A stretch of DNA of 56,285 nucleotides, taken from the NCBI GenBank assembly GCA_048939015.1, contig JBHLPW010000031.1:1-56285 (forward strand), written 5' to 3'. Positions within the stretch are counted from its first letter, which is position 1; the number at the start of each line of letters is the position of its first letter. Positions 1,264-16,840 of the stretch are shown here, one piece after another. The notes beneath the pieces were generated by a model, which saw only the letters and a list, made by a program, of their open reading frames with translations, was not told the DNA's origin and did no database searches. The stretch comes from Promethearchaeota archaeon. Lineage in GTDB: Archaea > Asgardarchaeota > Lokiarchaeia > Sigyniarchaeales > SOKP01. Made by a program: the position numbers and the translations under genes.

Positions 1264-1488
1264 TTAACCTACTGTAGCCCAATGCCCCATAAGCCCATAA
1301 ATCGAATCTACATCTATTTTTGCTGCTTCTTCAGCACCAAGCTTTTCATTAAGGCATTCTTGGATACAATTTTTTAACTCGTCACCTTCCTTTCCCGCCT
1401 CCATACAATCCTCCATACATTTAGAAATTATTTTTGCCTTGTCTTTTCCATGTTTTTCTTTAAGACGGTCATTAATAGATTGATTCAA
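1264..1488 (-). CDS. Small twin-CxxxC protein; candidate peptide precursor for the downstream radical SAM enzyme
   Basis: 74-aa ORF with CMEDC...CIQEC. SD GAGGTGA at 1509-1515 lies 5 nt before an in-frame ATA (1503), so the true start may be 5 codons upstream. Confidence 0.75.
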   Translation of the reverse strand: MNQSINDRLKEKHGKDKAKIISKCMEDCMEAGKEGDELKNCIQECLNEKLGAEEAAKIDVDSIYGLMGHWATVG

Positions 1489-1632: not shown

Positions 1633-1788
1633 TTAAATACTTTCAATATCTTTTTTTATACGAAGGCGCTCTCTATATACTACTCTAGACTCCTCAATTT
1701 GTTTACCCTCTTCCATAGGATTTTCTTCTATAATTATAATTTCGCTTAATATTATAGGTTCTTTTTGCTTTTCTACATCTTGTTGCAT
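1633..1788 (-). CDS. 51-aa hypothetical small protein (MQQDVEKQKEPIILSEIIIIEENPMEEGKQIEESRVVYRERLRIKKDIESI)
   Basis: Manual translation. Purine-rich GAGGGA upstream; begins 20 nt after the stop of the 1809-2039 ORF. Confidence 0.55.
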   Translation of the reverse strand: MQQDVEKQKEPIILSEIIIIEENPMEEGKQIEESRVVYRERLRIKKDIESI

Positions 1789-1808: not shown

Positions 1809-2039
1809 CTATTTTAAATCTCTTAATCCAAATTTAAATTTCTCAGGATGTAAATGGTAATACCCCCCTGATAGTTTCCATCGTTTTAAATCTCTTTTTT
1901 TTGATATTTGGTCTTTTTCTTTTTTAACAGATGGAGTCTTATCATGAATAATTATATTTTTTTCAATCGGAATGCTGGAACTTACTTCTTTTTCTAATTC
2001 CTTGAAATCAGATACGAAAATTTCCTCAATTTCGGTCAG
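1809..2039 (-). CDS. 76-aa small protein with CTG start, ending in the shared LHPEKFKFGLRDL motif
   Basis: SD GGAGGTGA directly upstream of CTG ACC GAA ATT. Open for 76 codons (MTEIEEIFVSDFKELEKEV...WKLSGGYYHLHPEKFKFGLRDLK). C-terminus aligns with the peptides at 7600 and 8050. Confidence 0.7.
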   Translation of the reverse strand: MTEIEEIFVSDFKELEKEVSSSIPIEKNIIIHDKTPSVKKEKDQISKKRDLKRWKLSGGYYHLHPEKFKFGLRDLK

Positions 2040-2225: not shown

Positions 2226-4034
2226 TTAATTTTCTTCAACTAGTTTTTCCAATTCATCAATCTTATCTGAGAGATATTTGATTCCTTTTTCCCAGAATGT
2301 AGGATCATTTAGATCGATACCAATTTCTGCCAACATTTCTTCAGGAGAAAGTGAACTTCCAAGAGAAAGTAATTTTAGATATTTAGGAACAAATTCATCC
2401 CTTTGTTCAAGATACATTTGATAGATAGAAATGACTAAAAGATTTGACATGTTATAGGCGTACACATAGAATGGAACATTTAAAAAGTGTGGAATTACAA
2501 AAATATAGTTGGCATATTCTTCCCGGATATTGATCATAGAATTCCTAAACATTAGTTCCATTTCTTTTACGAAAGCATCTTTAATTTCTCCCGTTGTAGG
2601 TAATTTCTTTTCTAATAATCCATGAATGGCTTTTTCAAATCTATAAAAAGCATTTTGTCTATGTGAAGTTGCAAACTTTGCTTCAATAGTACTACATAAT
2701 AATGCAATTTTTTCGTCCTTAGACAAATCTGTGTTCATTAAATAATCAGTGATCAACATTTCATTGAATACAGAGGCTATTTCCGCGACCACGAGAGAAG
2801 TTTCAATGTTTACAAAATTTTGATCTCTTTGGATATAATAGGCATGGAAGGCATGACCAAGTTCATGAGCTAAAGCACGTACCGAATCAACGGTCTCTAC
2901 AAAATTAACGAAAACAAATGCATAATGTTTTTGTTTACCATGTGCACAAAAAGCACCTCTATTTTTTCCCTTTCGCGGTGTCGCATCGATGTGTCCTATA
3001 TCAACTATTTTGTCTATAATATCTTTAAATTCAGGGCTAAATTTTTCATCAGAATCCTTAATTAACTCTATAGCTTCTTGGTAGGTATATTTTCTCGTTA
3101 TTTGGCCAATTGGTGCGTACAGGTCTGACATGTGTAATTCGGGAAGATTCAAGAGTTTTGTCTTTATATTATAATATTTTTCAACAATAGGATAACTATT
3201 TGTGGTAACTTCTCCACATACTTCTACACTCTCATCACTTACTTCATTTTCCAAGTTTCTTCTTGTGATAGGTTGTTTAAAGTTTCTTTTCGCACATTCT
3301 AAATCCCAATCTCTTAAAATATTGTTATAAATATGAGTGAATATCATCTCATTTTTTTTATACTCTGCCACAATTTTTCTTAGAGCTCTACGCCTACGAT
3401 CCACATCATCCTGATACATGTAAGAAAATAGTTCTGCTTCGGTTAGTTTCTTCATTCCACCATCTACTTCAAAATCAAAAGTAAAACTACTCTTTAATTC
3501 ACCATAAAGTTTGATAAAGCCTTTTACACCAGTCATATCCTTCATTAAGATAATTTGTTCCTCATTTTCAGAGAGTTGATGTTCTTTTTTCATCCTATTG
3601 AATTTGAGAGCATGCTTGTAATTATTTAGTTCTGGAGCTTTTACTAACTCTGCAAATTTATCGTCAGAAATTCGATTAAGCTCTAAATCAAAAAATAAGA
3701 GCTTTTGTTGGATTTTAACTTTAAACTCATCAATTTTTGAATAAAAACCTTTTATGTCATCATCCAGAAAATTAGTTCTTAATAGTAATTCTGCGTATGT
3801 ATCAAAATAAAAGGTCTTCTCTGATATATTTTCATATTCCTTGTACCATTCTAAAAGTTGTTCTGGTGTAAGTGAAGGGTCTTCTAATTTACCTTTGACA
3901 TTTTGATTAAAGTCTTTCGCTAATCTTTCTATCTCTTGGATATCTGTCTCAATCATAGGATCATTGATCCCTGTATAATAATCACTTAGATCCCATTTGA
4001 TTATTTCTTGTGTCATAAAAGAGAAAGTAAACAC
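2226..4034 (-). CDS. pepF: Oligoendopeptidase F (M3B family); likely start ATG 4016
   Basis: N-terminal WDLS, KGKNRGAFC, zinc motif AHELGHAFH, AEIAS, and PHF..PFYVYAY. Confidence 0.9.
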   Translation of the reverse strand: MFTFSFMTQEIIKWDLSDYYTGINDPMIETDIQEIERLAKDFNQNVKGKLEDPSLTPEQLLEWYKEYENISEKTFYFDTYAELLLRTNFLDDDIKGFYSKIDEFKVKIQQKLLFFDLELNRISDDKFAELVKAPELNNYKHALKFNRMKKEHQLSENEEQIILMKDMTGVKGFIKLYGELKSSFTFDFEVDGGMKKLTEAELFSYMYQDDVDRRRRALRKIVAEYKKNEMIFTHIYNNILRDWDLECAKRNFKQPITRRNLENEVSDESVEVCGEVTTNSYPIVEKYYNIKTKLLNLPELHMSDLYAPIGQITRKYTYQEAIELIKDSDEKFSPEFKDIIDKIVDIGHIDATPRKGKNRGAFCAHGKQKHYAFVFVNFVETVDSVRALAHELGHAFHAYYIQRDQNFVNIETSLVVAEIASVFNEMLITDYLMNTDLSKDEKIALLCSTIEAKFATSHRQNAFYRFEKAIHGLLEKKLPTTGEIKDAFVKEMELMFRNSMINIREEYANYIFVIPHFLNVPFYVYAYNMSNLLVISIYQMYLEQRDEFVPKYLKLLSLGSSLSPEEMLAEIGIDLNDPTFWEKGIKYLSDKIDELEKLVEEN

Positions 4035-4150: not shown

Positions 4151-4627
4151 ATGAAAGATACTAAAATACCATTTAATCCCACCCCAATTAATCCGATTAA
4201 TGAGTATAGCGAAGTTAAGCAAAGTGATATTCATGGTTTAGGATTATTTGCTAAAAAAAAAATTCCAAAAGGCACAAAATTTTGGTATGCACGTCCTCAA
4301 GATGTGTTAATTATCTCAAGAGATCAGTTTTTAATCCTTGATTCGGCTAATACTTCAACTTCTATGAAAGATTTTATGCATTATTTGCTTACTTATTCAT
4401 TTTATGAAAGAGATCAGGATGCATTAATCTTTTGCTTGGATAATGCAAAGTTCGTAAATCATTCCTTTAATCCTAATTCAGGAGCCTCTGAAGATGGAAA
4501 TGGATTTAGTTCCGTCGCATTAAAAGATATTTTACCTGGAGAAGAAATTACAGAGGATTATTCTAAATACACCCTCTGTTCCTGGTTGAAAAAGTATAAA
4601 ACGTATTTTGATCCTTGCTGTTGGTAA
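4151..4627 (+). CDS. SET-domain protein (lysine methyltransferase-like)
   Basis: SDIHGLGLFA, FVNHSFNPN and GEEITEDY SET signature motifs. Confidence 0.88.
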   Translation: MKDTKIPFNPTPINPINEYSEVKQSDIHGLGLFAKKKIPKGTKFWYARPQDVLIISRDQFLILDSANTSTSMKDFMHYLLTYSFYERDQDALIFCLDNAKFVNHSFNPNSGASEDGNGFSSVALKDILPGEEITEDYSKYTLCSWLKKYKTYFDPCCW

Positions 4628-4637
4628 TTCTTGAAAA

Positions 4638-5192
4638 TTATGACTTTGTAGATAATGCTTTAAATTTAGAATATAATTCAGTAATAATGGCATTGAATGC
4701 CTCGTGGACTCCTTGGCCTGTTTTTGCGGATGTTAAATAATAGTCTAAAAAATTTCGTTCCTCTATAATACCTTGAATCTTAGTCCTATTCAAATTTTGT
4801 TCATTAACTAAATCAACTTTATTGGCAAAAACAACAATAGGAATATCTCCACAATGTTTTTTAATATCTTCATGCCAGTCATTTATATGATCGAAGCTTC
4901 GTTTACCTAAATCATTTTCTTCTAAACTAAATACAATAATTGCTGCTCGACTCTCTCTATAAAAAGATGGACGCAAAAAGAGAAAATCATCCTGCCCTGC
5001 GATATCCCAAAATAATAATCGGACCTGATCGCCATTAATTTCTACATCATATTCAGACCACTGCGCACCAATAGTCTTAATATATTCCTTTTGAAACGAG
5101 CCTTGTGTAAATTTTTTGATAAGCGATGTTTTTCCAACTGATCCATTGCCTACAATCGTTATTTTAAATCCAAACTTCTGAGAATCGTTCAT
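4638..5192 (-). CDS. Rab/Ras-like small GTPase
   Basis: G1 GNGSVGKT, G2 TIG, G3 WDIAGQ, G4 NKVD, G5 SAK. No C-terminal prenylation cysteine. Confidence 0.93.
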   Translation of the reverse strand: MNDSQKFGFKITIVGNGSVGKTSLIKKFTQGSFQKEYIKTIGAQWSEYDVEINGDQVRLLFWDIAGQDDFLFLRPSFYRESRAAIIVFSLEENDLGKRSFDHINDWHEDIKKHCGDIPIVVFANKVDLVNEQNLNRTKIQGIIEERNFLDYYLTSAKTGQGVHEAFNAIITELYSKFKALSTKS

Positions 5193-5282: not shown

Positions 5283-5363
5283 TTAATGTTGATTTAACCA
5301 TTGGCAATAACCATTGTTAAAAACTTTTAATTGTGCTTCTTCATTTGCTTCAAGTTTTTTCAT
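5283..5363 (-). CDS. 26-aa peptide MKKLEANEEAQLKVFNNGYCQWLNQH
   Basis: SD GGAGGT about 8 nt before ATG, own conserved promoter/operator (5418-5453), and a T-rich tract after the stop. Confidence 0.7.
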   Translation of the reverse strand: MKKLEANEEAQLKVFNNGYCQWLNQH

Positions 5364-5417
5364 AGTTTTTTACCTCCTTTTTTTTAATTTTCTTAAGTTT
5401 AATATAGAAATGCTTCA

Positions 5418-5453
5418 TTATATAGTTTTTATTGCAAAACTTTTATCGAAGTT
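5418..5453 (-). promoter_or_regulatory. BRE/TATA (TAAAAACTATATAA) with upstream AACTT-N6-AAGTT palindrome, copy 1
   Basis: + strand ttatatagttttta-N6-AACTTttatcgAAGTT. Same layout at 7859 and 8171. Confidence 0.75.
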
Positions 5454-5501
5454 TGAATATAATGGAAAGTTTATAAATAAGACTAAAAGCAGATAAAAAT
5501 A

Positions 5502-7457
5502 CTATGTAATAAGAGGAGTACTTCTATTGACGAAAATTTCATTTATCAATGGTTCGAGCGAAGGAATGTCCTTTAGTTGTACTAATTGACAAGCCTGATT
5601 AAATTTATTAAATTTTTCCCACATTTCTGCATTCTCTTTAATCTTATCGATGAATTTTGTTACTCGTTGCTGTGCGAGATACGATTGTCCCTTAAATAAA
5701 TAGCATACGAGGAAAGGATCGAGAGAATTCATAATAATGGTATAATCTCCGAAGTTAGCCCTATCAAGGCCTTTAGAGAACATCTCATCACTAAAGGAAT
5801 TAATAGCAGTTAAGAAACCACCAAATAGATGATCCTCAAAAGCCCATTCTTCAGCAAACGATTCAGAGAACAATGGTCTTCCACCCTCAGAAATAATTAA
5901 AAGCACAATAGGATCCTCATCAGTGAGTTCGGGAACTACTATTTCTCTTTTTCGGATAATTTCTTCCATCTGTTCATCAAGTTGTGCTAATTTTATACGT
6001 TCAGACAAAGGTGCTTTTGACTTTTTCAGTTTTTCCCATATGTCTAACTTTTTAAGTAATTCATCATGTTCGTATGAAATTTTCATTGCTAATCGTTTAA
6101 TACCATGCGAATCCGCTATTTTTTGAGCTTGGGTTAAATATCGCCGGGCTGTTCCAATATTCAGATCTATTAAAGCTATTTTCGCTTGTAATATGAATGT
6201 TTCACAGAAAATCAAATAAGAATGTGAATTCTCAGCAATAGTTAATAATTGAGCAATGTTTTGATTAAGTTCCTTAAATACTTCTGGATTTTGATTTATA
6301 CGATACTCTGAAAGAAGTAAGTCGCAAAGGTCGATATAGGCATCAATAGCAACAATTAATCTAGTTGGTGTCTTGTCAAGGAGTTGTTTTAATAGTTCTT
6401 CAGCTTTAGCTTTATCTCGGATCCGAGAGCTCCTTTTCAACATATTAGCTTTAAAGTATTGGTACATTATTTCGAGATCTGTATCTTTACTTCTCTTAAT
6501 ATATAAATCTTCTAAACGTTGAAAATATTTTTGAGTACGCTCAGTATCTCCCTTTTCGAGAGCTATAAATAATAAGCCAGTAATACAGAATTCTATTCGT
6601 AAAGGGTTCTGCTCCCAAATTAGTAAAGCTTCTTCTAAATATTTCAATGCAATATCATAATTGCCAAAATAACCATATGTAGATCCTATATTGCTTTTTA
6701 GAGTAGCCACCCAAAGTTTGTTTTTAATTTTTTCAAAAAGATGTAAGCTCTTCTTAAAATGTTCTAAACTAAGAGTATATTCACCTAATTGTGCATATAA
6801 ATTTCCCAAATTGTTATGACACATAGCAATCCAGTAGTGTTTAAATTTAATCTCCTTTGCAAGTGATAATGCTTTTTTAACATATTCCAAACCAAGATCA
6901 AATCTACTTTTTACATTAATCATAATACTTGTCATTTGAAGATGAGCCATAACTTTAAAAAGTGTGACATTAGTTTCTTTTTGTAACCCTATAGTCCATT
7001 CATAGTGTTTCTCTGCTAATTCCATATCACCTTTACTATAATCTATCATTCCTCTAAAAACACTCATTAAAGCTTTTCTTTGCAGAAAATTTTTTTGAGA
7101 GATTTGAGAGGTAAGTTTTAATAAGTCTTCGGCTTTTTGGATTACTTCAAGTGCTTCATCAAATCGATCAAATAAAAGTAGCACTGCAGAAACTAAAGAC
7201 AATCCATCAAATGATTGGAGAGGTGCATTTTTTTTTTGACTCTCTTTATAGATTCTCCTTCCTAATTTAAATGCATCTTTAATTTTTCCTTGATATATTA
7301 GAATATAGCCTTTAATTAACTGGTATGAAACTTTTTGCTGGAGGGTAATTCCTTCACGCTGAATAAAATCGTCTAATAATTCAATAGCTTCATCTACCTT
7401 AAATACATCATAGAGTTTTTCAACTTCTGATAATTCATTCAGTTCAAGATAAGACAT
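5502..7457 (-). CDS. TPR-repeat protein with C-terminal longin-like domain, paralog 1
   Basis: TPR units such as NNLGNLYAQLGEYTLSLEHFKKSL. C-terminal LLIISEGGRPLF...LFGGFLTAINSF pattern resembles longin domains (by eye). Confidence 0.8.
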   Translation of the reverse strand: MSYLELNELSEVEKLYDVFKVDEAIELLDDFIQREGITLQQKVSYQLIKGYILIYQGKIKDAFKLGRRIYKESQKKNAPLQSFDGLSLVSAVLLLFDRFDEALEVIQKAEDLLKLTSQISQKNFLQRKALMSVFRGMIDYSKGDMELAEKHYEWTIGLQKETNVTLFKVMAHLQMTSIMINVKSRFDLGLEYVKKALSLAKEIKFKHYWIAMCHNNLGNLYAQLGEYTLSLEHFKKSLHLFEKIKNKLWVATLKSNIGSTYGYFGNYDIALKYLEEALLIWEQNPLRIEFCITGLLFIALEKGDTERTQKYFQRLEDLYIKRSKDTDLEIMYQYFKANMLKRSSRIRDKAKAEELLKQLLDKTPTRLIVAIDAYIDLCDLLLSEYRINQNPEVFKELNQNIAQLLTIAENSHSYLIFCETFILQAKIALIDLNIGTARRYLTQAQKIADSHGIKRLAMKISYEHDELLKKLDIWEKLKKSKAPLSERIKLAQLDEQMEEIIRKREIVVPELTDEDPIVLLIISEGGRPLFSESFAEEWAFEDHLFGGFLTAINSFSDEMFSKGLDRANFGDYTIIMNSLDPFLVCYLFKGQSYLAQQRVTKFIDKIKENAEMWEKFNKFNQACQLVQLKDIPSLEPLINEIFVNRSTPLIT

Positions 7458-7599
7458 GTTTACATTTAATGTGGATTATAACCTTATGAATTCATTAAGC
7501 TAAGTTTAATTTTAAATCTAATTAAACTAATATAACTAAGAAGATAAGAATTTTACAAGAAAAAAATTAAAAAAAAAGAATAAGAAAAAGAATAATTAA

Positions 7600-7686
7600 T
7601 TATAGGTCTTTCATTCCAAATTTGTATTTCTTTGGATTTAAGACAAAATCTCCAAGAGTAGCTTCCATACCTTTTTTATTTGACAT
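7600..7686 (-). CDS. 28-aa peptide MSNKKGMEATLGDFVLNPKKYKFGMKDL
   Basis: SD GGAGGG. Near-identical paralog at 8050 differs by an in-frame 12-nt indel. T-tract after the stop. Confidence 0.8.
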   Translation of the reverse strand: MSNKKGMEATLGDFVLNPKKYKFGMKDL

Positions 7687-7734
7687 ATTTTTACCCTCCA
7701 TAAGGTTTTATATAATATGATAAAAGTTATTTGA

Positions 7735-7812
7735 TTAATCATGAATGTAATTTTGTGAAACTATTACATCATTTCTTATTTTTATAATTCGAGTCTGATT
7801 TATTTTTTTCAT
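7735..7812 (-). CDS. 25-aa peptide MKKINQTRIIKIRNDVIVSQNYIHD
   Basis: GAGGG SD-like site. First ORF after promoter copy 2, upstream of the 28-aa peptide. Confidence 0.5.
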   Translation of the reverse strand: MKKINQTRIIKIRNDVIVSQNYIHD

Positions 7813-7858
7813 TTTTTTTCCCTCTATGTTTTCTTAATTATAATATAGAAATAATTTA

Positions 7859-7895
7859 TTATATAGTTTTTAATATAGAACTTTGTACGAAGTTC
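7859..7895 (-). promoter_or_regulatory. BRE/TATA with GAACTT-N6-AAGTTC palindrome, copy 2
   Basis: + strand ttatatagttttta-N6-AACTTtgtacgAAGTT. Confidence 0.75.
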
Positions 7896-8049
7896 GAATA
7901 TTTAAGAAAGTTATGAAATGTATATTCTTAATGCGAAAAAGAGAGGAAAGTGGGTTCTATTTTAAATATAAATATTTGATAAAAATCATAAAATATTAGA
8001 TAATATAATAAAGAATTTAAAAAGATTAAAAAGAAGAATAAAAAATTAA

Positions 8050-8124
8050 TTATAGGTCTTTCATTCCAAATTGGTATTTCTTTGGATTTAAGACAAAATC
8101 TCCAAGAGTAGCTTTATTTGACAT
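8050..8124 (-). CDS. 24-aa peptide MSNKATLGDFVLNPKKYQFGMKDL
   Basis: SD GAGGT, paralog of 7600-7686, divergent from the wHTH-TPR gene. Confidence 0.8.
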   Translation of the reverse strand: MSNKATLGDFVLNPKKYQFGMKDL

Positions 8125-8170
8125 TTTATTTACCTCTTTATTTTGTTAATTATAATATAGTATACTTTTA

Positions 8171-8206
8171 TTATATAGTTTTTATTAAGAAACTTTATGC
8201 GAAGTT
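8171..8206 (-). promoter_or_regulatory. BRE/TATA with AACTT-N6-AAGTT palindrome, copy 3
   Basis: + strand ttatatagttttta-N6-AACTTtatgcgAAGTT, in the divergent intergenic region about 80 nt before the regulator start. Confidence 0.75.
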
Positions 8207-8287
8207 CGAATATTCAAAGAATAATTTAAATAGTTAAAACTGCTATCTATCAATGACGAACGAATCTAAATAAGGATCTCAAAAGCT

Positions 8288-10189
8288 ATGAGTTTAATTA
8301 ATTATCCTCCAGAAGAAATACATAAAACACCTAAATTTGGAAAAAAAAATTTTGAACATATTATTCTCTGGATGTTATCAAATAATGATGAATGTCAATG
8401 GTCAGATTTTACTGAAACACCACTTGAACTTCGTCTATCTACCTTATCCAAATATCTTTCTATGTTGAAAGGTAGAGGTTACGTAGATAATTATACTCGA
8501 GGCCATTATAAGATAACTCCGGAAGGTAAGAAGAGATTTCATGAAGTATCTGGAGCTCTTAGGAAAAAAAGAAAATTGAATTATCCTCCCGATATTATCA
8601 AAAAAAGAAGGAATTATGATCATTGGATTCTTTGGATGGTTTATAATAACGATTTTTTGAAATGGTCAAACTTTCTTGAAGAACCACTTTCAATAAATCA
8701 ATCATCCTTATCAAAAAATATGAATTTGTTATTAGATAAAGGATTTGTAGTAAAAGAGAATAAGAGATACAGAATTACTCAATCAGGTAAATTAGAATAT
8801 TCAAGAATTTTGCAAAACTATGATTTAGATAGACAATCAATTTTAGATGAAGAAAGCAGACGAATTGAAGATATTGCAAAAAATACAATTAATTTTTTTG
8901 AAAAATATAGTATTAAGGATGAAGATATTCAATTTAGATTCCTCAACAATGTTCTAAGATTAGATTATACTCGTGTCAAAACTATGCTTACAGTTGAGGA
9001 AGAGTTTGACAAGATACTACTTTTTCTTTCTATTAACCATCCAGATCAGTATCCTGATTATATTTCAAAAAATGATTTTTCAAAAAAATTTGGGATAAAA
9101 AAATCAAAATTAGAATATTACATTGATGAGATTGTTGAAAATCAAATATATCCAATAAAGTTTTTTAAATTAACAGTATCACCGGAAACAGTTTATTATT
9201 TTCAGGAACAGGAGCGATTAGAAATTATGCTTCAAACTATTACTGAAGAGCATATCACTAAATTTACTTATTTAAACAAATTATTTTCAAGATCTATGGA
9301 TATTCGTGCTACGTTGGATGATATATTAGAGGATATATGTAATTTTTTGTTTGATGAGGAGTTAAAAAATTCGTTAGTAGAGTTTCTTCCAGAATATGTG
9401 AATTATTTAGCTTATAAAATTGAAGCTAAGGTGGAATTGAAGGAAACATTTGATAAATTAGAAGGAATAATCTGGCAGGATATGATAGATATTTTTCACA
9501 CTAGACGATTAGGAGACTTAAAAGAGCAGTATGAAGATATAATTAAACAGATAGACAAAGAAATTGAACAGAATCCCGACAATCTTGAATTGTACAATTC
9601 TAAAATAAAGGTTTTAATTTATTATGAGCAACTCGATGAGGTTTTACAACTACTAGATGAAATGTTAGAGATTTTTCCAGATAATGAAACAGATATCAAA
9701 ATGAAAAAAGCATCAGTACTTAGAATGATGAGAGGCGTACGCGCGGGTTTGGAAATTATTAATGAATTAATTGAAAAATATCCGGAAAATAATGATCTTC
9801 TTAATTATAAGGCCTATTGGCTTCAGTATTTAAATAAAAAAGAAGAAGCATTAGAGATTGCTCAAACTCTTACCACAAATGTACCCGATAATGGAACCTA
9901 CCACGATACATATGGAGAAATTTTAATGTATTATGAAGAATACGAAGAAGCTATCAAGAAATTCGAAAAAGCAATAGAAATAGGAGCTGATGAATGGTAT
10001 ATTAATCAAACATATATTAAACTTGGAATTTGTTATAAAGAACTTGGGAATTATAAATTAGCACTTGAAAATCTTAATAAGGGAAAACGGTTAACAGAAG
10101 AAATTGTTGTAGATGCTGAGACTAAACAAAAATGGAACAGTATAGCAGATCTATTTCTTTTAGAGATATCAGAGATGAAAGAAAAATAA
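8288..10189 (+). CDS. Putative transcription regulator: tandem winged-helix domains plus C-terminal TPRs, paralog 1
   Basis: Two internal repeats NYPP...ILWM...SxLSKxLxxLxxKGxV...YxITxxGK (MarR/ArsR-like wHTH). C-terminal TPRs such as YHDTYGEILMYYEEYEEAIKKFEKAIE. Confidence 0.8.
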   Translation: MSLINYPPEEIHKTPKFGKKNFEHIILWMLSNNDECQWSDFTETPLELRLSTLSKYLSMLKGRGYVDNYTRGHYKITPEGKKRFHEVSGALRKKRKLNYPPDIIKKRRNYDHWILWMVYNNDFLKWSNFLEEPLSINQSSLSKNMNLLLDKGFVVKENKRYRITQSGKLEYSRILQNYDLDRQSILDEESRRIEDIAKNTINFFEKYSIKDEDIQFRFLNNVLRLDYTRVKTMLTVEEEFDKILLFLSINHPDQYPDYISKNDFSKKFGIKKSKLEYYIDEIVENQIYPIKFFKLTVSPETVYYFQEQERLEIMLQTITEEHITKFTYLNKLFSRSMDIRATLDDILEDICNFLFDEELKNSLVEFLPEYVNYLAYKIEAKVELKETFDKLEGIIWQDMIDIFHTRRLGDLKEQYEDIIKQIDKEIEQNPDNLELYNSKIKVLIYYEQLDEVLQLLDEMLEIFPDNETDIKMKKASVLRMMRGVRAGLEIINELIEKYPENNDLLNYKAYWLQYLNKKEEALEIAQTLTTNVPDNGTYHDTYGEILMYYEEYEEAIKKFEKAIEIGADEWYINQTYIKLGICYKELGNYKLALENLNKGKRLTEEIVVDAETKQKWNSIADLFLLEISEMKEK

Positions 10190-10197
10190 TAAAAATA

Positions 10198-10752
10198 TTA
10201 AATTTGAAAAGCTAATTTCTTAGATTTATAATATAATTTTTCTATAATTGCATTAAAAGCTTCTATTACTCCTTGGCCTGTTTTTGCTGAAGTTATATAA
10301 TACCCTAAAAGGTTAAATTTATTGACTAAATTTTGAATTTCTGATTCATTTAAATCATTTTCATTAATTAAGTCGACCTTATTGGCAAATAAAACAACTG
10401 GTATATTGCCACAATATTTATTTAATTCATTATTCCAATTTTCTATATGCAATAAGCTGTCTTTTCCTAATTCATTTTCTTCAAGGCTATATACAATAAT
10501 ACATGCTCTACTTTCTTTATAAAATAAAGGATGGAGAAAATTAAAATCATCTTGACCTGCAATATCCCAAAATACTAATTTAATTATATCTCCATCAATT
10601 TCTTTTTCATATTTCGAGAATTGGGCTCCTATTGTCTTTATATAGTCTTTTTCAAAAGTTCCCTTAGTAAATTTGTTAATTAGGGAAGTTTTTCCAACTC
10701 CTCCATCACCTATTATAGATATTTTAAATCCAAATTCTTGGGAACTATTCAT
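10198..10752 (-). CDS. Rab/Ras-like small GTPase, paralog of 4638-5192
   Basis: GDGGVGKT, TIG, WDIAGQ, NKVD, SAK. Confidence 0.93.
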   Translation of the reverse strand: MNSSQEFGFKISIIGDGGVGKTSLINKFTKGTFEKDYIKTIGAQFSKYEKEIDGDIIKLVFWDIAGQDDFNFLHPLFYKESRACIIVYSLEENELGKDSLLHIENWNNELNKYCGNIPVVLFANKVDLINENDLNESEIQNLVNKFNLLGYYITSAKTGQGVIEAFNAIIEKLYYKSKKLAFQI

Positions 10753-15916: not shown

Positions 15917-16327
15917 TTATCCTCTCTGTTTAACATAAGCAACAACAATAAGAACGAGAAGTAGGCTCATTATAACAATATCCATAACGCCTTGCATAGT
16001 AGCTTCAGTGGAGAATACAGAGCCAAATACCGCAACCAATGAAGCTTCCACAGCTATGTTAATTGGTAACCAAATACCCAAAACTTCATATGCGAGTTTA
16101 ATTTTTTCCCACTCCCAATCCTTATGGAGAAGTACTAATACGGCAAAAATTGTTACGATGAATAATGCTGCACCAAACATTCGTGGATGAGAAGGATTTT
16201 GCCACGTTGGCTCATTAAGGGTGGCCAAGAATATATCAGTTAGGAATACAAGCATTATCCCAAAAAATAAACTGACACCACCGTATGCTAAAATTGCAAT
16301 TTTTGTTAATTTTTTAATTTCAGTCAT
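15917..16327 (-). CDS. Four-helix membrane protein, paralog 1
   Basis: Four hydrophobic segments. Paralog of 16368-16760 (MTEIKK, WEKxKLxYE, YxKQR). Confidence 0.8.
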   Translation of the reverse strand: MTEIKKLTKIAILAYGGVSLFFGIMLVFLTDIFLATLNEPTWQNPSHPRMFGAALFIVTIFAVLVLLHKDWEWEKIKLAYEVLGIWLPINIAVEASLVAVFGSVFSTEATMQGVMDIVIMSLLLVLIVVAYVKQRG

Positions 16328-16367
16328 TTATTTCACTCAAATTTTTTTCAAATTTCTTTTTTTATAA

Positions 16368-16760
16368 TTATTCTCTTTGTTTAATATACGAGTAAACCCC
16401 AAGAACAAGCAATACAGACATTACTATCATATCCATAATAGTCTGAGAAATCATCATACTAGTAGGTGTACCAAATGCTAACCGTGTAGGTTCCAGGATC
16501 ATCATAGCTATTAACAAATAGTACAAGAATTCATATATCAGCTTTACTTTTTCCCATTCTCGATCTTTTTTAATTAGAATTAAGAATGCGAAAATTGCAA
16601 TTCCCAATAAAGTTGCACCATTGTATCTTACATTGAAAGGATTGGTTGTAGCATCTATAAGAAGAGGGACAGGAAAAAATAAACCCATAGGTCCATATAG
16701 TATATTAACGATACCGTATGCTAAAAGGGAAATCTTTGTAATCTTTTTTATTTCGGTCAA
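16368..16760 (-). CDS. Four-helix membrane protein, paralog 2
   Basis: Same architecture as 15917-16327; TTG start. Confidence 0.8.
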   Translation of the reverse strand: MTEIKKITKISLLAYGIVNILYGPMGLFFPVPLLIDATTNPFNVRYNGATLLGIAIFAFLILIKKDREWEKVKLIYEFLYYLLIAMMILEPTRLAFGTPTSMMISQTIMDMIVMSVLLVLGVYSYIKQRE

Positions 16761-16840
16761 TTTTTAAATCAACTCAATATCTTTGTTTTTTCGGTTTTAT
16801 CATCTTAATGATGACCAATATAAGTTTGAGAAATTGTGTG

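Follow-up and report, generated by a model that had tools for sequence, protein, structure and literature searches.

The stretch of DNA analysed here, called the window, comprises 56,285 nucleotides from a Promethearchaeota archaeon. It carries a direct repeat between positions 7600 and 8124, which is almost certainly, judging from sequence comparison, a pair of real and unannotated genes belonging to an undescribed peptide family (family A). The features discussed below are listed here; all are in the window except for the last two.

1809..2039 (-): 76-residue long-form family A gene with a CTG start and the Shine-Dalgarno (SD) sequence GGAGGTGA at 2046-2053; a predicted helix, then the same C-terminal core
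4638..5192 (-): Rab-like small GTPase whose clade is repeatedly found beside the peptides; a paralogue lies at 10198-10752
5283..5456 (-): third operator-promoter (5418-5456) and gene for a 26-residue basic peptide (5283-5363), directly upstream of the GTPase
5502..7457 (-): 651-residue TPR protein, downstream of the peptides; its C-terminal domain looks longin-like (by eye)
7545..7599 (-): T-rich tract past the stop codon, a probable terminator; a similar tract at about 7995-8049
7600..7686 (-): 28-residue family A micropeptide gene; ATG at 7684-7686, SD GGAGG at 7695-7699
7735..7812 (-): 25-residue family B basic peptide gene with the motif IIKIRND, first gene behind the 7897 operator and unrelated to family A
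7859..7897 (-): operator-like palindrome TCGAACTT-N6-AAGTT (7879-7897) and BRE/TATA-like AAAAACTATATAA (7859-7871)
8050..8124 (-): 24-residue family A micropeptide gene, four codons shorter than the 28-residue copy; SD GAGGT at 8132-8136
8171..8209 (-): second operator copy (8191-8209) and BRE/TATA-like box (8171-8183), between the 24-residue gene and the divergent regulator
8288..10189 (+): 633-residue tandem winged-helix and TPR (wHTH-TPR) protein, candidate operator-binding regulator, head-to-head with the peptide genes; Pfam TPR over the cut-off, TPR region at 9485-10186
C4:14372-14449: further family A member, 25 residues, from the six-frame genome search
C125:48430-48660: further family A member, 76 residues, from the same search

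The preliminary description read the repeat as two peptide genes, each with its own SD, that differ by a frame-preserving 12-nt indel and one K/Q change. The translations are as it gave them, and the indel and a single non-synonymous AAA/CAA change are indeed the sole differences between the two genes. It also reported a third copy of the motif at the end of a 76-residue open reading frame, and this is the gene at 1809-2039, which ORF lists based on ATG, GTG and TTG overlook because it starts with CTG behind GGAGGTGA. It made no mention of the third, unrelated peptide gene between the two, of the micro and long classes, or of the operator-controlled cassette with its second peptide family. The TAA of each of the two genes is trailed by a T-rich tract, and the gene at 7600..7686 is probably the second of a two-gene transcript.

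All synonymous sites are identical in the tandem pair, and therefore the pair alone represents a DNA duplication and shows no selection. The copies differ at 2/63 core bases here and at 2/63 in the close relative G323, and the four cross-genome comparisons give 4-6; this fits homogenisation of the window pair, via gene conversion or repeated duplication. An assembly artefact is excluded, because two other genomes (G026 and G030) have the same tandem layout. Neither peptide is among 15 billion called proteins and no gene caller recorded either. Rfam gave no match for 7400-8300, and a search of sequencing runs listed no RNA holder.

Family A and selection on its core

The six-frame search of the source genome found five family A members at 46-52 bits, with the next best at 14, although the profile was built from those same five sequences. 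Independently of the profile, the 28-residue peptide alone as query has matches in 33/36 genomes of the same genus. A profile search of Asgard genomes, which the preliminary description had suggested, found further members to be abundant in two genera, that of the window (48/53 genomes) and a second (26/42), with weak matches in a third (2/6). Ten other genera of the same Promethearchaeota family gave no profile match, and a draw of 260 genomes from the phylum gave four marginal hits outside the family, none convincing. The relatives are Promethearchaeota, and the range of family A would appear to be two genera (weakly a third) of one family of these Loki-type Asgard archaea. Records titled Hermodarchaeota or Hodarchaeota (L064, L067, L071) carry the same module, and matches were also obtained in two contigs with such titles; the titles may be submitter labels and not GTDB placement.

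Among the 1.8 billion representatives searched, 51 proteins were recovered, 30-104 residues in length. Pfam, run on 50 members, gave nothing over E 0.1, and the peptides have no Pfam or NCBIfam match, short sequences scoring poorly in such searches. No longer fused homologues of family A were found in what is a weak test, the ESM Atlas gave no usable hit, and the literature search found no paper on such peptides and none joining Asgard and RRNPP.

The members fall into two classes. The micro class (24-31 residues) has a basic start followed by T-L-x-D-[YF]-L-x-[NH]-P-K-K-Y-x-F-G-x-K-D-L. The long class, mostly of 63-100 residues, has a charged N-terminal part and then W-K-x-S-x-G-Y-Y-x-L-[NH]-P-x-K-F-x-F-G-L-K-D-L. 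Some 30-residue forms retain the long-form Trp and look intermediate. CTG or TTG starts led by an SD are found in 17/46 long forms. The motif originally proposed for the family captures a real shared core and is too narrow: its literal form matches the three window copies only, and not the C4 and C125 members, G5 and positions 6 and 18 being variable.

Over the 21-residue C-terminal core, dN/dS is 0.26 (31 disjoint nearest pairs from 77 distinct cores; binomial p about 2e-18 for purifying selection), the value being approximate because the pairs mix paralogues and orthologues. It is 0.37 for positions 1-8 and 0.19 for positions 9-21, and the best conserved residues are P11, K13, F16, G17, D20 and L21. 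The claim of protein-level selection on the core is thus borne out across the family, and not by the tandem pair alone; that the core is also active, as the preliminary description put it, is suggested by this conservation. Its picture of variable N-termini before a C-terminal core holds as well, the stop lying within one residue of the core end in 70/77 distinct copies, with 3 to about 80 residues N-terminal to the core. Almost all homologues are open frames, and a few copies are broken.

These results bear on the possibility that the repeat is non-coding DNA or RNA, open by chance. The window copies are almost identical at the DNA level and are missing from gene calls, as such a repeat might be, but the chance is negligible given that the synonymous excess is in this frame only (0.26 against 0.96-1.9; pN/pS is 0.96 and 1.88 in the two shifted frames and 0.96 on the reverse strand), that the stop position is fixed, that an SD and ATG are present in 27/31 micro copies, and that there is homology to called proteins of 75-90 residues.

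The core is also found at the end of other proteins. A 296-residue protein with an N-terminal Cys/His motif has it as its C-terminus (L021:1498-2388, L057:685-1590; one event, two genomes), and paralogues of this protein in the source genome are without it. The idea that an ending of this kind is native to the host family was rejected, only 2/11 paralogue ends fitting loosely. At L124:146-460 a truncated winged-helix gene and the C-terminal half of a long form are joined in one frame, which is open in a 661-bp contig, and the same fusion at L089:10640-10900 is interrupted by a stop-rich insertion in G343. Two near-identical divergent 49-residue members stand in tandem in the third genus (L091:2432-2840, G306), again homogenised. 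Several small proteins (L024, L030, L046, L051, L026) have the long-form N-terminus with a different ending (S-T-Y-S-Y-G...W-H-Y), and this suggests that the C-terminal motifs are swappable. Further small-protein families of 50-90 residues are found in long-form operons (window 1633-1788 (-), L010:921-1184, L076:3046-3597); one has a helix and then an N-P-[KR]-Y motif, and the window copy at 1633-1788 looks truncated.

The promoter and the neighbouring genes

The micro unit consists of TCGAACTT-N6-AAGTT, seven bases, AAAAACTATATA, and an SD-led ATG about 55 nt further. With a promoter profile that was trained on other genomes, the source genome has five sites scoring 58-70, with the next at 18, and all five precede a basic peptide of 24-26 residues. 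Among the fetched loci, nearly all strong sites lie before 21-30-residue peptides of family A or family B. The family B gene is kept at the 7735..7812 position in L002-L004, L007, L011, L075 and L080, and the peptide at 5283-5363 resembles it. Basic peptides of 21-32 residues, of this second family and unrelated ones, are found behind the same operator-promoter at 7735-7812, 5283-5363 and G000 C21:19553-19633. Paralogues of the regulator have related half-sites in their divergent gaps, as read by eye. Away from the module there are stand-alone units, each with a promoter and terminator of its own (C4, L005, L006, L008, L009, L012).

The typical module order is divergent wHTH-TPR gene, operator, peptides and Rab-like GTPase. 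The regulator lies within 1.5 kb of 16/31 micro copies, always divergent and upstream (genome background 0.5%), and the GTPase within 1.5 kb of 13/31, always co-oriented and downstream (background 3.8%). Long copies face the wHTH-TPR regulator in 13/46 cases and an unrelated AbrB-type regulator in 14/46 (within 1.5 kb), and none of the tested neighbours is within 1.5 kb of 9/31 micro and 12/46 long copies, 21/77 in all; these counts are inflated by kinship, kin not being independent, and limited by short flanks. The regulator is mostly multi-copy in the two peptide genera and mostly single-copy in the other genera that have it, and it also occurs in genera without a peptide match. The source genome also has regulator-GTPase clusters without peptides.

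Other genes of the region were noted in passing. The cluster includes a stand-alone SET-domain gene at 4151-4627 (+) and a PepF-type M3 peptidase at 2226-4034 (-), each single-copy or rare. A link to the family was rejected for both, the SET methyltransferase being within 1.5 kb of only 2/77 copies and PepF of only 4/77. At 1264-1488 (-), upstream of a B12 radical-SAM-like gene, is a 74-residue protein with two C-x3-C motifs, whose Cys are not kept in all homologues. A paralogue of a small membrane-protein gene that faces the second wHTH-TPR gene lies at 15917-16763 (-), apparently split in two frames; it begins with TTG near 16760 and is intact in C32 and C21.

Possible functions of the core

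The peptides are basic (pI 8-10, net charge +1 to +5), Lys-rich and aromatic. They are hydrophilic (GRAVY -0.4 to -1.35) with no hydrophobic signal stretch or export region, and are therefore taken as cytoplasmic. AlphaFold predicts for the long form a helix that leads into an HP turn and, past this, short helical turns, with a pLDDT of about 80 for residues 41-70. Fold searches with this model gave no Foldseek hit, and the best VIA match (Z 2.9) was to generic helices.

We propose that the divergent wHTH-TPR protein would, judging from its position only, bind the palindrome just upstream of the BRE/TATA-like box and switch the peptides on, and that these would remain in the cytoplasm. In the core, a helix would be followed by an [NH]P turn and then by an aromatic tail ([FY]xFGxKDL). 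The core would dock on one conserved protein, most likely of the module: either the regulator, in its invariant TPR groove, or the Rab-like GTPase, giving feedback or inhibition. The micro forms would be the motif on its own, probably descended from long forms that lost their N-terminal part, and would act by dose, which would account for the tandem copies. That these are cytoplasmic docking peptides binding one conserved protein of the module is our preferred reading, held tentatively and drawn from the gene context.

The core is fixed despite very different N-termini and has twice been grafted onto other genes, as may be expected of a motif that docks on a single conserved surface. Since the TPR region of the regulator has K, W, D, T, E and Q residues that are invariant across paralogues, and since the GTPase clade is conserved, either could be the docking surface; the TPR invariance would match the need of one shared ligand. 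Against a target in the module, a peptide regulated by a protein need not bind that protein, and we also count against it the copies without tested neighbours, the AbrB-type pairings, the peptide-free regulator-GTPase clusters, and the presence of the regulator in peptide-free genera. A joint structure prediction in which the peptide was combined with PCNA, the regulator TPR region and the GTPase scored 0.00, with the peptide fold uncertain and a set-up unlike the calibration, and it counts neither for nor against docking. The CRIB motif of Cdc42/Rac effectors has an F-x-H-x-x-H pattern after a Pro. Some micro forms resemble it, reading I-S-x-P-x-x-aromatic after a basic patch beside a small GTPase gene, but no copy has the two His or the pattern that follows them, position 16 being F and position 19 K/R.

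The same core in every context, behind two regulator types, would also point to one conserved cytoplasmic protein that is not encoded nearby, linkage being unnecessary. This has a fairly low chance of being correct, as it has no positive candidate, and it reduces the repeated linkage to the GTPase module to co-regulation. A role as basic peptides of stress or dormancy, with direct binding to nucleic acid or ribosomes and no more than co-regulation with the module, would suit the high pI and the Lys-rich, aromatic composition, the several unrelated basic peptides under the same promoter, and the stand-alone units. The net charge is however only +1 to +5, Asp20 is conserved, the rigid residue pattern better suits a protein pocket than bulk nucleic-acid binding, and the patchy multi-copy distribution makes a ribosomal component unlikely; we consider that such binding is not the likely role.

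Core positions 1-8 could also be a non-canonical PIP box with the tail running along PCNA in the manner of the p21 C-terminus or TIP, making the peptides sliding-clamp inhibitors that pause replication on operon induction. The spacing h4-x-x-aromatic7-h8 fits 28/31 micro forms, Asp is at position 6 in 29/31, and the source genome, with one PCNA gene, has similar PIP-like ends on its own FEN1-like and DP2-like proteins (QVSLDDFI, QHKLSDFF). The C-terminus of p21 is described as a PCNA-inhibiting peptide (PMC6204406), as is TIP of the Thermococcales, a small archaeal protein reported to bind PCNA without a canonical PIP (PMC5389659). Family A resembles these, TIP by description only, in being small and basic with hydrophobic-x-x-aromatic-hydrophobic spacing and then a basic/aromatic tail. 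However, the Gln of the canonical PIP box (Qxxhxxaa) is at position 1 in 0/77 copies, micro forms seldom have an aromatic residue at position 8, and the spacing, often broken in long forms, is found in only 25/46 of them even with position 8 relaxed. Conservation is centred past the PIP-like part, all of the best conserved residues listed above lying outside it and dN/dS being higher in positions 1-8. Given that a Gln-less PIP-like 6-mer arises by chance in about 2% of 28-mers, and that no replication genes are among the neighbours examined, clamp inhibition is rather improbable.

The cassette invites comparison with the RRNPP cassettes of Bacillota, such as Rgg/SHP, PlcR/PapR and NprR/NprX (PMC10075063). 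In both, the gene of a DNA-binding TPR protein neighbours, in many cases head-to-head, a small peptide gene that follows an operator-like site and has a conserved C-terminal part, and the propeptide length (10-100 residues in RRNPP) and the TPR hits of the regulator agree. Adjacency holds in the window and in the 16/31 micro and 13/46 long copies given above, and not in the rest. On the other hand, the Asgard cassette has several peptide families per locus, long forms, unlinked copies, a linked Rab-like GTPase, and a receptor candidate of 633-840 residues with tandem winged helices, and no sequence similarity to RRNPP was found. It is not classed as RRNPP, because two of the five features (PMC10075063) are lacking: there is no Sec signal or SHP-type hydrophobic export region, and the regulator has 633 residues here and about 630-890 in relatives, against 250-500. 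These two points also weigh against a pheromone that is exported, trimmed to the C-terminal few residues, re-imported, sensed by the wHTH-TPR protein and cleared by PepF, for which there is otherwise the shared layout and a PepF gene nearby in the window and some loci. In addition, conservation covers all 21 core positions and not just the final 5-10, the core shows no diversification from one receptor paralogue to another and so holds no receptor-specific code, it is found also with a second type of regulator and as the ending of 76- and 296-residue proteins, and PepF is rarely close by. We find such a pheromone improbable.

A cytochrome c fragment or mimic, with the core copying the 60s helix and the NPKKY loop, is scarcely credible: the TLxDYLxNPKKY-type helix and turn does resemble cytochrome c residues about 61-74 (rice 70-83 being the best PDB sequence hit for both profiles, E about 0.001), but the match is just 14 residues, the score of an unrelated HAD hydrolase comes close to it, the CxxCH haem site and the rest of the fold are absent from all members, the source genome (95% complete) has no PF00034 match, the nearby SET gene is seldom a neighbour, and the shared helix-cap turn explains the match, which is best read as convergence on a shared local structure.

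Family A is thus, on the strength of sequence comparison, an undescribed micropeptide family with good evolutionary support, a clear regulatory setting and a narrow range. Since it is found in one Promethearchaeota family only, it says little on the eukaryotic ancestor unless its target proves conserved. Few partners are known for the small GTPases that Asgard genomes encode by the dozen, and annotation does not see genes shorter than 30 codons. The family offers a selected and synthesisable motif of 24-30 residues whose promoter is defined and whose candidate targets are few, so that what one Rab-like clade and the regulator linked to it respond to is addressable in vitro without culturing the organism. 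It is possible, if on balance doubtful, that the wHTH-TPR regulator induces a micropeptide set in which the motif of this family directly controls either the Rab-like GTPase or the regulator of that GTPase, or acts as a brake on PCNA. If true, peptide-level regulation of 'eukaryote-like' machinery would here be seen for the first time in Asgard archaea.
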